Shown piece after piece: positions 22,341 through 29,378 of a stretch of 64,000 nucleotides of DNA (position 1 is its first letter; every line of letters starts with the position of its first letter). The stretch lies in the NCBI GenBank assembly GCA_042408215.1, contig JAYFMW010000006.1, positions 896,001-960,000 of the forward strand, read 5' to 3'. The notes under the pieces were generated by a model, which saw only the letters and a list, made by a program, of their open reading frames with translations, made no database searches and had not been told where the DNA came from. This DNA comes from Microcoleus sp. GTDB taxonomy: Bacteria; Cyanobacteriota; Cyanobacteriia; Cyanobacteriales; Microcoleaceae. The position numbers were made by a program, and so were the translations under genes.

Positions 22341-24279
22341 ATTGGTGAGAGATTATTAGTTATTGGTAGCAGCTAACCAATAACTAATAACCAATAACAA
22401 ATAACCAATAACAACATCCTAATAACCAGCATTTTTCAACTCTTCTTTGAGCATTTGTCGGTAGACTTTCGGCAAACTAGAACTCATAGAATTGTTCTCA
22501 ATGCCATAGCCCAAACTCGTCCAGGTTCCCGACAGCATCCGCAATACCTGACTTAATTTTTCCGATCGCAGCATCTCAGAAATATCAGCTTTCCAAAACT
22601 TGCGATCGCTCAACCAAGCATAAACCACAGCATCCTGATATTCTGGCTCAAAACTGTAATCTTGCCACATCATAAAATTAGCAGGTTTCGGGTGATAGCG
22701 CTTAGCCTTATCCTTCCAAGTCGAACTCAAAAATTGATACCTACCCGCCGCCGTAGTACAGTTACCCCGATTCGGGCCATTCACAATCGTCACGCACCAG
22801 TCAGGATGGTGACTCAAATCTAATATGTATTTGCCACCATAAACAACATGATAAGGTCGAGAAACATTCGACTCGCTAGCAGAAATAGTTCGCATCAGCG
22901 CCCGAATGTAAGGATCGCCCGCTTTCATAGCTAGTGGCGGCAATTTGCGAACCTCACTTGCTTGGGGAGATAACGGCGGCAAACCCCGCCAACTGACAGC
23001 CAAAAAAACAGCGCCGCCAATCACAGCGCCGATTAATATTAGAAATCCCAGGATTTGAATTTCCGATCGCCTCAGCAAACCCCCCGGTTGACGGCGGAAT
23101 TGTTGAGCTTGCAGCCAACTCATTTCCATTTCAGCAATTTCGGCCAATTTTGTAGCAGCCCGCATCCGGCGCACCCGGAAATCGTGTTGATATAGTGGCG
23201 CAGCCAACAGCGTCAAACTCGACAAAGCCCCAGCCAATCTAAGCAGCCAGAAATCGAATTCACCAGCTAATGCAACTTTTGCATTGGTCATTGGTCATTA
23301 GTCATTGGTCATTGGTCATTAGTCATTAGTCATTGGTGATTGGTGAGAGATTATTAGTTATTGGTAGCAGCTAACCAATAACTAATAACCAATAACAAAT
23401 AACCAATAACAACATCCTAATAACCAGCATTTTTCAACTCTTCTTTGAGCATTTGTCGGTAGACTTTCGGCAAACTAGAACTCATAGAATTGTTCTCAAT
23501 GCCATAGCCCAAACTCGTCCAGGTTCCCGACAGCATCCGCAATACCTGACTTAATTTTTCCGATCGCAGCATCTCAGAAATATCAGCTTTCCAAAACTTG
23601 CGATCGCTCAACCAAGCATAAACCACAGCATCCTGATATTCTGGCTCAAAACTGTAATCTTGCCACATCATAAAATTAGCAGGTTTCGGGTGATAGCGCT
23701 TAGCCTTATCCTTCCAAGTCGAACTCAAAAATTGATACCTACCCGCCGCCGTAGTACAGTTACCCCGATTCGGGCCATTCACAATCGTCACGCACCAGTC
23801 AGGATGGTGACTCAAATCTAATATGTATTTGCCACCATAAACAACATGATAAGGTCGAGAAACATTCGACTCGCTAGCAGAAATAGTTCGCATCAGCGCC
23901 CGAATGTAAGGATCGCCCGCTTTCATAGCTAGTGGCGGCAATTTGCGAACCTCACTTGCTTGGGGAGATAACGGCGGCAAACCCCGCCAACTGACAGCCA
24001 AAAAAACAGCGCCGCCAATCACAGCGCCGATTAATATTAGAAATCCCAGGATTTGAATTTCCGATCGCCTCAGCAAACCCCCCGGTTGACGGCGGAATTG
24101 TTGAGCTTGCAGCCAACTCATTTCCATTTCAGCAATTTCGGCCAATTTTGTAGCAGCCCGCATCCGGCGCACCCGGAAATCGTGTTGATATAGTGGCGCA
24201 GCCAACAGCGTCAAACTCGACAAAGCCCCAGCCAATCTAAGCAGCCAGAAATCGAATTCACCAGCTAATGCAACTTTTG
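22284..24279. repeat. 998-bp direct tandem duplication
   Basis: 22284-23281 matches 23282-24279. The stop codons at 22419 and 23417 are offset by 998. Confidence 0.9.
22419..23291 (-). CDS. 5'-truncated duplicate of the lysozyme-like muramidase gene
   Basis: Identical to the C-terminal 286 aa of 23417..24703. Its ATG is supplied by the STRR. Confidence 0.5.
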   Translation of the reverse strand: MTNAKVALAGEFDFWLLRLAGALSSLTLLAAPLYQHDFRVRRMRAATKLAEIAEMEMSWLQAQQFRRQPGGLLRRSEIQILGFLILIGAVIGGAVFLAVSWRGLPPLSPQASEVRKLPPLAMKAGDPYIRALMRTISASESNVSRPYHVVYGGKYILDLSHHPDWCVTIVNGPNRGNCTTAAGRYQFLSSTWKDKAKRYHPKPANFMMWQDYSFEPEYQDAVVYAWLSDRKFWKADISEMLRSEKLSQVLRMLSGTWTSLGYGIENNSMSSSLPKVYRQMLKEELKNAGY

Positions 24280-24703
24280 TCAGAGTAGATATTCCTGCTA
24301 GCAATTCCCCCGGATTAAGCGATCGCGCCTGCCAATAAAAAATCGCAACTTGCACCAGCAGCGACAGATTAAATGCCAGAAAGATTACTACTAGAGCATT
24401 CAAACCTTCCCGGAAGTGCGATCGAATACCAGTATGTCGGCGCTGGAACTTACCTGCTATGTGAAAGCGGCCAGGTAGCAGAGTTAGTATGGGATTTAAG
24501 ATGGTGACGGCTAAAAAGTGAACAACAAAGAACAAAGGTAACTGAATTAGCCAAGCAGTTAGCAATAGAGTCAAAAAGCTCAGATCGTCATTGACTAAAG
24601 GAATGCCCCTGTTCACTACAAAACTAAAACTCTGAGCGAGGACAAATGCCCTTAACCAGGAAATCGGATAGGGGAACCAAGCTGGCCACTTGAGAGTTTT
24701 CAT
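23417..24703 (-). CDS. Membrane protein fused to a lambda-lysozyme-like (GH24/GH104) muramidase
   Basis: N-terminal TM helices. C-terminal ALMRTISASE...TAAGRYQFLSSTW...FEPEYQD...WTSL. Confidence 0.8.
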   Translation of the reverse strand: MKTLKWPAWFPYPISWLRAFVLAQSFSFVVNRGIPLVNDDLSFLTLLLTAWLIQLPLFFVVHFLAVTILNPILTLLPGRFHIAGKFQRRHTGIRSHFREGLNALVVIFLAFNLSLLVQVAIFYWQARSLNPGELLAGISTLTKVALAGEFDFWLLRLAGALSSLTLLAAPLYQHDFRVRRMRAATKLAEIAEMEMSWLQAQQFRRQPGGLLRRSEIQILGFLILIGAVIGGAVFLAVSWRGLPPLSPQASEVRKLPPLAMKAGDPYIRALMRTISASESNVSRPYHVVYGGKYILDLSHHPDWCVTIVNGPNRGNCTTAAGRYQFLSSTWKDKAKRYHPKPANFMMWQDYSFEPEYQDAVVYAWLSDRKFWKADISEMLRSEKLSQVLRMLSGTWTSLGYGIENNSMSSSLPKVYRQMLKEELKNAGY

Positions 24704-24904: not shown

Positions 24905-25564
24905 TCAAACCACACCCGCAAACAATTCCAGAAAACTCTTTTCCGTCGCCTCCGACTTCGCCACAATCTCCACAAGCTTATTGCGAGAAGCCGGCTCAAA
25001 TAGAGCCTCCACACACACTTGAGCTACCTTAGTGCGGGGAATACTACCATCTGATAGTTTGTCCGCTGACTCCATGACGATCGCATTAGAATTATCTTCA
25101 TTTTTGAGACCGCCTGGACGGACAATAGTGTAAGTTAGCCCACTTTTTTGCAAATATTCCTCAGCTTGCTTCTTCCAAACCAAAATCAACCAGAACAAAT
25201 TCAGCGGGTGGAAAAAGTTAGACACGCACAGAGAAGTCACCAGCACAAAATGCTCAATTCCCTTAGCCTTAGCTGCATCCACCAAATTTTTAGTTCCCTC
25301 AAAATCCACCCGATAAGGCGCTGTCGGGTCAAAACCAGGGGCTGCACCCGTCGCGCAGAGCAATACCGTACTATCACCGATGGCATCACTGAGAGATGTA
25401 GCATTTAATACATCTCCCGTGACTAACTCAGCTTCCGGGGGTAAAATTTGCCTAGCTGTCTCTAAATTACGGACTAGAGCACGTACGGGAATCCCGCGCT
25501 TTACCAATTCAGTGACAATTCGGCGTCCAGTCTGGCCTGTGGCTCCTGCTACAAATGCTTTCAT
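24905..25564 (-). CDS. NAD(P)H-binding atypical SDR (NmrA/Ycf39/Tic62-like)
   Basis: VAGATGQTG Rossmann motif, SGLTYTIVRPGGL, IPRTKVA. Confidence 0.88.
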   Translation of the reverse strand: MKAFVAGATGQTGRRIVTELVKRGIPVRALVRNLETARQILPPEAELVTGDVLNATSLSDAIGDSTVLLCATGAAPGFDPTAPYRVDFEGTKNLVDAAKAKGIEHFVLVTSLCVSNFFHPLNLFWLILVWKKQAEEYLQKSGLTYTIVRPGGLKNEDNSNAIVMESADKLSDGSIPRTKVAQVCVEALFEPASRNKLVEIVAKSEATEKSFLELFAGVV

Positions 25565-25919
25565 CAGAAAATTGGGTTTGAAACCCCGTCCTTTTAGGAC
25601 GGCTTTGCTTGATTTGATAAATTAGTTGCCTACCTCTTTCGAGGCGGAGGGGTATGGTTGCCCCTCCTTTGGAGATATGGTTGTCTCCAGTCCCTTTCGG
25701 GTAAAGTTCGCTTCGCCAATGTTATAAGAGCTTGTTAGGCTGAAAGCACTGTTCCAGTGACCTTAGAACTGTTTAACTAGCAGCGACAGAGCAAGGGACT
25801 AGCGTCGCATCCCAGGGTGTCGTGACTCAAATAACGTAGTCAGCTAAGACTTAGGCTGGTCAGAATGGCTTGTTCGATTACTCTTGCAAGCCCCGTCCCT
25901 TAAGGGCGGGGTTCCTGAC
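25565..25919 (-). mobile_element. Non-autonomous IS200/IS605 element carrying an IscB-type omegaRNA and no ORF (355 bp)
   Basis: The end TGGGTTTGAAACCCCGTCCTTTTAGGACGGCTTT is nearly identical to the left ends of the two tnpB elements. The other end is CAAGCCCCG...CGGGGTTCCTGAC. No target duplication. Confidence 0.85.
25670..25919 (-). ncRNA. HEARO / IscB omegaRNA scaffold (3' boundary approximate)
   Basis: Minus strand: GTCAGGAACCCC..GGGGCTTG..CTGACCAGCCTAAG..CTACGTT..CACCCTGGGATGC..CTAGTCCC..CTCTG..GTTAAACAG..AACATTGGCGAAG..TTACC. This block order is characteristic of HEARO RNAs. Confidence 0.8.
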
Positions 25920-26049
25920 AAATCGAGTTATCCTGAACTAGGGTATGTTTTGTTGCTACCAGCAAGTTTCCATTCTCAATTGTAGGGAGTTTCCTCCCTT
26001 GCCACATCCCCAACCCGAGTAATAGGCGTGTATTAAAGGAGAGCGAACC

Positions 26050-27549: not shown

Positions 27550-27658
27550 AAAAATACTCGGTAAGTGGGAAACTCTGAGTCTTCAGACTTGAGAGGGAAA
27601 CGACTTTTTCCTAGACTACAATAGCACAAATTGTTCCAATCTAAAATCTAAAATCAGA

Positions 27659-28364: not shown

Positions 28365-29265
28365 AATGGGTCGTTGCACATATTCCGATCCCCCTAAATC
28401 CCCCTTCTTAAGGGGAGTAGGGGTTGACTTTGATTGGACTCTTGTCCCCCCCTTAAGAAGGGGGGTTAGGGGGGATCGAATTCTATGCAGCTTCATAAAA
28501 AATTGGTATTACATAAAAAACCCGGTTTCTAGGAAAACTTGTGCAATGGGTCGTTGCACATATTCCGATCCCCCTAAATCCCCCTTCTTAAGGGGAGTAG
28601 GGGTTGACTTTGATTGGACTCTTGTCCCCCCCTTAAGAAGGGGGGTTAGGGGGGATCGAATTCTATGCAGCTTCATAAAAAATTGGTATTACATAAAAAA
28701 CCCGGTTTCTAGGAAAACTTGTGCAATGGGTCGTTGCACATATTCCGATCCCCCTAAATCCCCCTTCTTAAGGGGAGTAGGGGTTGACTTTGATTGGACT
28801 CTTGTCCCCCCCTTAAGAAGGGGGGTTAGGGGGGATCGAATTCTATGCAGCTTCATAAAAAATTGGTATTACATAAAAAACCCGGTTTCTAGGAAAACTT
28901 GTGCAATGGGTCGTTGCACATATTCCGATCCCCCTAAATCCCCCTTCTTAAGGGGAGTAGGGGTTGACTTTGATTGGACTCTTGTCCCCCCCTTAAGAAG
29001 GGGGGTTAGGGGGGATCGAATTCTATGCAGCTTCATAAAAAATTGGTATTACATAAAAAACCCGGTTTCTAGGAAAACTTGTGCAATGGGTCGTTGCACA
29101 TATTCCGATCCCCCTAAATCCCCCTTAAGATGGGGAGTAGGGGTTGACTTTGATTGGACTCTTGTCCCCCCCTTAAGAAGGGGGGTTAGGGGGGATCGAA
29201 TTCTATGCAGCTTCATAAAAAATTGGTATTACATAAAAAACCCGGTTTCTAGGAAAACTTGTGCA
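28365..29265. repeat. 180-bp tandem array, 5 near-identical copies
   Basis: Units start at 28365, 28545, 28725, 28905 and 29085. They contain the GATCCCCCTAAATCCCCCTT...AAGGGGGGTTAGGGGGGATC inverted repeat. Confidence 0.95.
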
Positions 29266-29378
29266 TCGAAGCGAGAGATATTGACACAGAAACCTGGTTT
29301 TTGGCCTCGCATAGGGTTAATCTGAGATCTTGTATGATGATCGAGAACAGGCTTTTCGGCCTGTTCCACAAAATTAAG

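Follow-up and report, generated by a model that had tools for sequence, protein, structure and literature searches.

Stand-alone omega-RNAs of OMEGA-IscB systems are reported to act in trans, and the part of PMC10691335 available to us calls their biological role unknown; they also figure in PMC9581776, and both papers cite Altae-Tran 2021. In Geobacillus stearothermophilus, ISGst5 IscB elements and omega-RNA PATEs take their guide from outside the element, and excised sites are restored (bioRxiv 10.1101/2023.03.14.532601, in the available text). Because that guide lies outside, transcription must begin outside the element as well; TnpB-type elements are described there as transcribing their guide from inside. 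The same preprint reports a bias towards same-orientation upstream genes for iscB but not for tnpB, and leaves undecided whether it is generated or retained. According to the accessible part of PMC4810608, one left end is common to Isc-type and TnpB-type elements, whose genes are oppositely oriented.

Stand-alone omega-RNAs and the N|ATGA target have already been published; start-codon docking we did not find in print. The available parts of PMC13565253 and PMC9755519 make no mention of start codons, and literature searches at title and abstract level turned up neither start-codon docking set beside a same-end control nor the twin-loop module described below.

A protein-less omega-RNA element directly before a start codon

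The element lies on the minus strand of the 64-kb stretch of Microcoleus DNA that was analysed as a whole (the window). It is a 355-bp, ORF-less insertion of IS200/IS605 type, running from GTCA to TTTTCTG (Table 1), in which the longest ORFs reach 29 aa on the minus and 33 aa on the plus strand and tblastn found no match to IscB. The HEARO RNA model (RF02033) matches it from model position 1 to 211 of 211, scoring 164.6 bits (E = 4.5e-35; gathering score 83), and this is the sole Rfam match in the window. A preliminary description of the letters had proposed a stand-alone IscB-type omega-RNA; the covariance-model match and the absence of ORFs bear this out. Its span of 25565–25937 was right at the start but too long at the other end, where the element stops at 25919 and the further 18 nt are host flank, the would-be guide. 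Another 136 bases of the element, made up of the module and the left end, fall outside the HEARO model, and no HNH ORF follows the RNA.

Subterminal hairpins stand at both ends without terminal inverted repeats, the insertion is adjacent to a tetranucleotide and made no target duplication (as the exact empty site attests), and the genome holds 20 PF01797 (Y1 transposase) matches; all three are marks of a non-autonomous IS200/IS605 element (PATE). The iscB ORF that lies downstream of the RNA in an ISC transposon is missing. Searches for a group I intron, as in an IStron, gave no Rfam intron match, whether in the window (gathering score as cut-off) or in 13 loci (E ≤ 5), and at E ≤ 5 the 3′ module matched no self-cleaving ribozyme or riboswitch of Rfam in 13 loci carrying either of the modules described below. 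The element is a protein-less IS200/IS605 (ISC) mini-transposon with an intact IscB omega-RNA scaffold, a known kind of element.

Table 1. Features of the element and its host site (window coordinates)
Feature	Position	Strand	Evidence
ORF-less element, GTCA...TTTTCTG	25565–25919	-	exact empty site in 22/24 relatives; no ORF >33 aa
IscB-type omega-RNA scaffold (HEARO RF02033), pseudoknot included	25701–25919	-	164.6 bits; covariation, 33 copies in genome
Right-end subterminal hairpin (first RNA stem-loop)	25891–25911	-	sequence
Terminal GTCA	25916–25919	-	sequence
Putative DNA guide, right end	25887–25890	-	sequence; IS608 pairing rule
Short terminal hairpin closing the omega-RNA; the iscB start comes next in iscB-carrying copies	25692–25700	-	
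Module in the iscB slot	25633–25688	-	loop almost unchanged and first stem covarying among 49 distinct variants; no Rfam family
Twin hairpins sharing the 8-nt loop CAACCAUA	25671–25688, 25646–25667	-	
Tetraloop hairpin of the module	25633–25644	-	
Left-end subterminal hairpin (left-end region 25574–25602)	25586–25602	-	
Putative DNA guide, left end	25580–25583	-	
Small hairpin, scored weakly terminator-like, 9 nt before AUG	25574–25586	-	
Target tetranucleotide ATGA, made up of the start codon and one further base; predicted TAM	25561–25564	-	junction sequence; N|ATGA in available text of PMC4810608
Host leader bases forming the would-be guide, ~16 nt (inferred length)	25920–25935	-	
Candidate -10 hexamer TACAAT, present in most relatives; 59 nt separate it from the element; no match to a -35	25979–25984	-	read by eye
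Host gene, 219 aa, NAD(P)H-binding (SDR/NmrA-like), intact	24905–25564	-	

The IS608 pairing rule was the basis for calling TnpA DNA guides beside the hairpins. Across 140 complete left-type ends of the genome, the four hairpin-adjacent bases vary jointly, by eye, with the junction tetranucleotide (TTTC with ATGA, TTTT with ATAA, CTTT with GTAA, CTTG with GTCA and CTTC with GTGA), which agrees with TnpA DNA guides; covariation of subterminal guide motifs is described for such elements (bioRxiv 10.1101/2023.03.14.532601, available text). From the hairpin, the left end runs through a U-rich tail directly into the ATG. Judging by the junctions, ATGA is the predicted TAM of this genome's IscB. The last 10 nt of the would-be guide followed by ATGA occur nowhere in the genome for this copy, and a 10-nt seed plus ATGA recurs elsewhere for 2 of the 41 ORF-less copies with a called end.

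The gene opened by this ATGA encodes an NAD(P)H-binding protein matching PF13460 at residues 7–191. The preliminary description had the element exactly between a native ribosome-binding site, AGGA, and the ATG. The ATG side stands; the other side does not, since the supposed site reads AGCA in 20 and AGGA in only 3 of 23 readable relatives. AGGA lies 11 nt before the ATG and pairs weakly with the anti-Shine–Dalgarno (SD) 8-mer (-4.1 kcal/mol). A sigma-70-type promoter scan returned 0 sites.

Over 29 sites, the predicted energy for opening the AUG region had a median of 5.7 kcal/mol in filled and 5.9 kcal/mol in empty alleles (P = 0.31, Wilcoxon test), with 5.3 in a genome sample. SD-like pairing of -4.5 or stronger was found at just 76 of 300 sampled ATGA starts; in cyanobacteria, SD sequences occur in about half of the genes and start-codon accessibility is required for the rest (PMC3121790, available part). 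Unaltered AUG accessibility and the frequent absence of an SD would, on these predictions, explain how the host tolerates the insert. Translational coupling through a TGA overlapping the ATG was considered and rejected, there being no small-ORF start codon between scaffold and junction in this copy.

Two repeats were seen elsewhere in the window. At 22419–24703 (-), ORFs of 428 and 290 aa end in an identical stretch of ~285 aa, reflecting a ~1.4-kb tandem duplication or an assembly repeat, and the 428-aa ORF matches no Pfam family; at 28366–29325 (+), five near-identical 180-bp tandem units form an open frame of 60-aa repeats.

The empty site and recent insertion

At 22 of 24 same-genus loci, two of them at 99% identity, the leader joins the ATG directly. 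This is the element-free junction that the preliminary description had predicted, and the comparison likewise upholds its N|ATGA insertion point. The remaining two loci are filled at this very base by other elements: one is 385 bp long and has a divergent omega-like RNA scoring 32 bits, below the HEARO cut-off; the second is tnpB-like and exceeds 1.4 kb. The divergent RNA, with the same ends, was seen in L009 (2358–2551), L103 and L025 and was not found in this genome; we take it to resemble IsrB-type RNAs.

Contigs from sequencing runs X1, X2 and X22 skip exactly 355 bases (25564/25920), which is the empty allele, and contigs of run X21 span the two junctions of the filled allele, extending 33 and 42 bases across them. 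As both alleles appear in these contigs, neither is an assembly artefact. RNA-library contigs crossing the site carry the empty allele; their depth over the element was rejected as evidence of expression because it sums many paralogues.

The insertion appears to be recent on this comparison, the nearest relatives being empty here and at psb27, rpsP and ftrV. Orthologues of these three genes confirm both true starts and recent insertion: for psb27, 3 of 28 relatives are filled, by a different element; for rpsP, 0 of 28; and for ftrV, 2 of 29. Conversely, among six sites that are filled in near relatives and empty here, five open long ORFs, psbD among them; the ORF-less HEARO element concerned (L412, G005:C350) sits on the start codon of a PsbD-like gene (photosystem II D2, by eye) whose site is empty in G000.

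Two further sites had unusual junctions. The start of the divergent neighbouring DUF1997 gene (window 26050) is filled in 2 of 24 relatives (L023, L025), by a full HEARO element in one and a 123-bp internally deleted element in the other, and the leader there has a genuine AGGAG that the insertion splits from the ATG. At ftrV (G000:C7 near 267800, L249), a ~26-nt remnant beginning GTCA lies between the native leader and the element, so that the guide would mismatch a plain empty allele.

Sibling copies, IscB and transposase in the same genome

HEARO matches number 70 in this genome, 64 of them over the cut-off; 26 are next to iscB or its remains and 44 are ORF-less. That iscB and tnpA would be present elsewhere in the genome, as anticipated, proved correct. 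Several iscB copies are intact, with RuvC and HNH motifs; the one at C8 (G000:C8:37060–38328) encodes 423 aa with RRXRR and HNH domains and catalytic motifs, its best solved relatives are IscB structures, and its RNA is 85% identical to that of our element. Among the Y1 transposase matches, two abut the same end type (at a GTCA junction) and two abut the other end type with an ATGA junction.

We aligned 32 ORF-less copies and one iscB copy. In the structure derived from this same alignment, 95.8% of 1815 cells are paired, 28 of 55 pairs have changed on both sides and 0 of 500 shuffles scored as high; the pseudoknot helix is 84% paired, with 2 of its 4 pairs covarying. Because the structure comes from the alignment itself and the rows are related, the covariation supports selection on the scaffold but does not prove it.

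The ORF-less copy G000:C6:210182 and the frameshifted iscB copy C23:24201 have identical scaffolds. Copies combine scaffolds, modules and end types in differing ways, which suggests exchange between elements. Four iscB elements (G000:C30:110370, C5:414672, C5:441871 and C21:57733) have an RNA starting in GCTA and no hairpin left end, and end at a GCGATCGC-like sequence.

ORF-less copies are concentrated on start codons

After setting aside four composites, one copy of the other end type and one fragment, 38 of the 44 ORF-less copies were counted. Tabulating their insertion sites, as the preliminary description had proposed, revealed a strong bias: 29 of 38 open a host gene (27 by the ORF rule, PetL and PetM by Pfam), with starts called by a simple custom gene finder and checked against orthologues at four sites. 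Products of 26 of these 29 genes belong to a Pfam family, and they include rpsP (S16), rplS (L19), fusA (EF-G), petL, petM, ChlB, Psb27 and PntA. For five more copies a same-strand gene begins no more than 200 nt downstream, so that 34 of 38 are at a start or this close before one. Starts make up 2,479 of 15,871 non-disrupting ATGA sites (15.6%), against which the observed proportion is highly unlikely by chance (P = 1.5e-16, binomial test; P = 4.7e-11 against a background of 25%). Only 2 of 38 copies face an opposite-strand gene, compared with 47% of background sites. Of the four composites, three likewise abut an ATGA that opens an ORF, in one case at an internal ATG, and iscB-carrying copies were at starts in 9 of 16 cases and at a start or in a leader in 13 of 16 (16 with a called end, ten others without).

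The preliminary description had expected an ATGA preference to steer such elements to start codons. TnpB-type elements with the same left-end types and the ATGA junction sit at starts in 5 of 21 cases, which does not differ from background (P = 0.22), so ATGA alone does not explain the bias. The two classes differ clearly (76% versus 24%, P = 2.3e-4, Fisher exact test). In this comparison class and age are confounded, many of the TnpB-type controls being young copies that are nearly identical (five here and five in G049), and related copies do not count as independent. TnpB families with ATAA, GTAA or GTCA junctions, of which 2 of 102 opened an ORF, are unfit as ATGA controls.

Left ends also occur alone. 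The final 55 nt of the hisG leader (window 27550–27604, -) are a second-type left end that stands without a right end or RNA and runs up to the ATGA of the gene; of the partnerless ATGA ends in the genome, 5 of 6 are at starts. Persistence of such ends is what one would expect if host selection alone shaped the distribution, that is, if insertion at ATGA were random, omega-RNA elements in a leader did no harm or gave a slight benefit (an AUG left open and a 5′ end that is folded), TnpB-type elements were harmful through their own transcription against the gene, and neither IscB nor TnpB were needed to persist. The unaltered accessibility of the AUG and the tolerance of the insert by essential-type genes fit as well. 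Harmlessness, however, leaves unexplained why the copies avoid non-start sites, which make up 84% of non-disrupting ATGA sites, and why so few of them face opposite-strand genes, and the entire scaffold is conserved, pseudoknot included. We regard host selection alone as rather improbable.

The bias in other genomes

The bias recurs in other genomes but is not universal. A collection scan used an end pattern that did not contain ATGA, and ATGA followed 108 of its 115 end matches. With two ambiguous rows dropped, 23 of 32 HEARO-bearing ends opened an ORF compared with 4 of 14 TnpB-type ends (P = 0.009); the remaining classes gave 1 of 3 for iscB, 0 of 2 for other GTCA-ended elements, 8 of 22 unclassified and 16 of 33 with short context. 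Five further genomes, with 33 loci of which seven are in common with the collection scan, had 4 of 11 HEARO-type and 0 of 14 TnpB-type ends at starts (P = 0.026), and 3 of 8 unclassified. In the metagenome sample, 15 of 30 ends were at starts, or 12 of 25 after duplicates were collapsed by eye, with 12 ends uncalled. The bias was weak in G050, where 2 of 8 ORF-less copies were at starts and the six others mostly outside leaders; G041 has only one matching end and was unusable as a replicate genome.

Four of 23 external hits were on genes also hit here, when 0.35 to 1.46 were expected depending on the target set, and the ATG studied here has been hit by elements in three genomes of the genus. 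Repeated use of the same start codons by different elements, together with young lineage-specific copies that are already at starts, could point to a transposase that finds start-codon ATGA, in open promoter DNA or by wider context, by way of the GTCA-type right end or the RNA, with TnpB-type elements either unbiased or purged. Strong promoters and hot spots would explain such recurrence equally well. The left end with its DNA guide is moreover present in TnpB-type elements, which show no bias, and the accessible part of PMC4810608 reports termini and target common to both classes; such an insertion bias strikes us as unlikely.

Two RNA modules in the iscB slot

Where iscB would begin, this copy has a module of two hairpins with a common loop. 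Forty-nine distinct variants retain the CAACCAUA loop and the stems, so the twin-loop module is not a decayed gene. Of 119 metagenome pattern matches to it, 42 lie beside a HEARO RNA or an element end and 77 are unrelated. About half of the sister copies have a three-way-junction module of ~100 nt instead, with covarying stems and possible loop–loop pairing; it is present in many cyanobacteria (loci L159–L162, L164, L166–L168, L172–L174, L177 and others). Neither module matches Rfam.

Three resemblances were considered and rejected. A hammerhead core, CUGAUGA, is present at the junction, where the downstream host sequence is unconserved and Rfam gives no match. The three-way-junction module has a likeness to the hairpin ribozyme, of which the supposed catalytic positions vary as helix partners, again without an Rfam match. 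Mimicry of the initiator-tRNA anticodon by the CAACCAUA hairpin fails on loop size and register. Separately, the low-GC metagenome contigs L283 and L392 have in common an intergenic stretch of ~250 nt that is rich in GC. It includes a hairpin with the CAACCAUA loop, has no relation to HEARO and gives no Rfam match.

A module conserved in this slot across cyanobacteria, and the terminator-like hairpin 9 nt before the AUG, might suggest a domesticated regulatory leader in which the RNA fold, IscB binding or the twin hairpins control the downstream gene to the benefit of the host. We consider this very improbable, given that the site is empty in most relatives and polymorphic among near-identical strains, that the target genes are functionally unrelated and that the module also occurs in copies away from starts.

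Discussion

We lean, though not strongly, towards the view that a promoter-made guide, with IscB acting in trans to defend the element, explains retention at start codons. TnpA would insert before ATGA fairly indiscriminately; insertions within genes would be purged, and those without a promoter reading into them would make no guide and be lost by excision. The survivors would be sense-strand, non-coding, transcribed ATGA sites, most of which are start codons. There, as the preliminary description had proposed, a single transcript from the host promoter would probably contain guide, scaffold and mRNA. IscB made elsewhere in the genome would cut chromosome copies that lack the element, which would then probably be restored by repair from a chromosome that still has it; several chromosome copies are present in cyanobacterial cells. 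The left end, with its U-rich tail, would leave the AUG open and so keep the host gene expressed, in a setting where most starts have no strong SD.

More broadly, gene-less OMEGA elements of cyanobacteria may have adopted the start codon as a niche. ATGA would at once be transposase target, TAM and AUG; promoter capture would be combined with a gene-drive-like IscB defence within a multi-copy chromosome, a portable translation-start tail that would serve even ribosomal and photosystem genes, and an uncatalogued twin-loop module that would mature or protect the guide RNA within the mRNA. This wider synthesis is tentative, and we hold it as possible rather than probable.

With their matched filled and empty alleles, the two classes of copies described here make up a natural experiment on whether IscB elements preferentially insert or persist in transcribed sites. 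If the proposed account is true, about 30 housekeeping mRNAs per genome would have a folded leader of 350–500 nt that varies between strains, a little-noticed kind of leader variation, and each copy would be a natural single-transcript guide cassette.

As with the stand-alone omega-RNAs of OMEGA-IscB systems, these copies are mobilised without an effector or transposase of their own, and effector-bearing loci are present in the genome. They differ from those accounts (the available text of PMC10691335 contains 'start codon' 0 times) in that most copies dock on start codons and a hairpin module replaces iscB. The HEARO RNA RF02033 is matched over its full length; unlike it, the element has no HNH ORF and extends 136 bases beyond the model. 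Like IStrons (bioRxiv 10.1101/2023.11.20.567912, available part), it is of IS605 type and found at essential genes with low host cost, but those splice out of coding sequence, whereas this element has no intron match and would spare the host gene by its place just before the AUG. It resembles ISC1-1_MA and IS605B-1_MA of Microcystis aeruginosa (PMC4810608, available part) in its 5′-GTCA terminus, insertion at N|ATGA without duplication and subterminal hairpins; both of those encode protein, IS605B-1_MA numbers 46 copies in Microcystis NIES-843, and the available main text uses 'start codon' 0 and 'translation' 0 times. With ISGst5 and its PATEs (bioRxiv 10.1101/2023.03.14.532601, available text) it has in common protein-less copies with an external guide. 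The evidence there concerns the orientation of the upstream gene; here it is docking on the downstream AUG, set against a TnpB-type control with the same ends.
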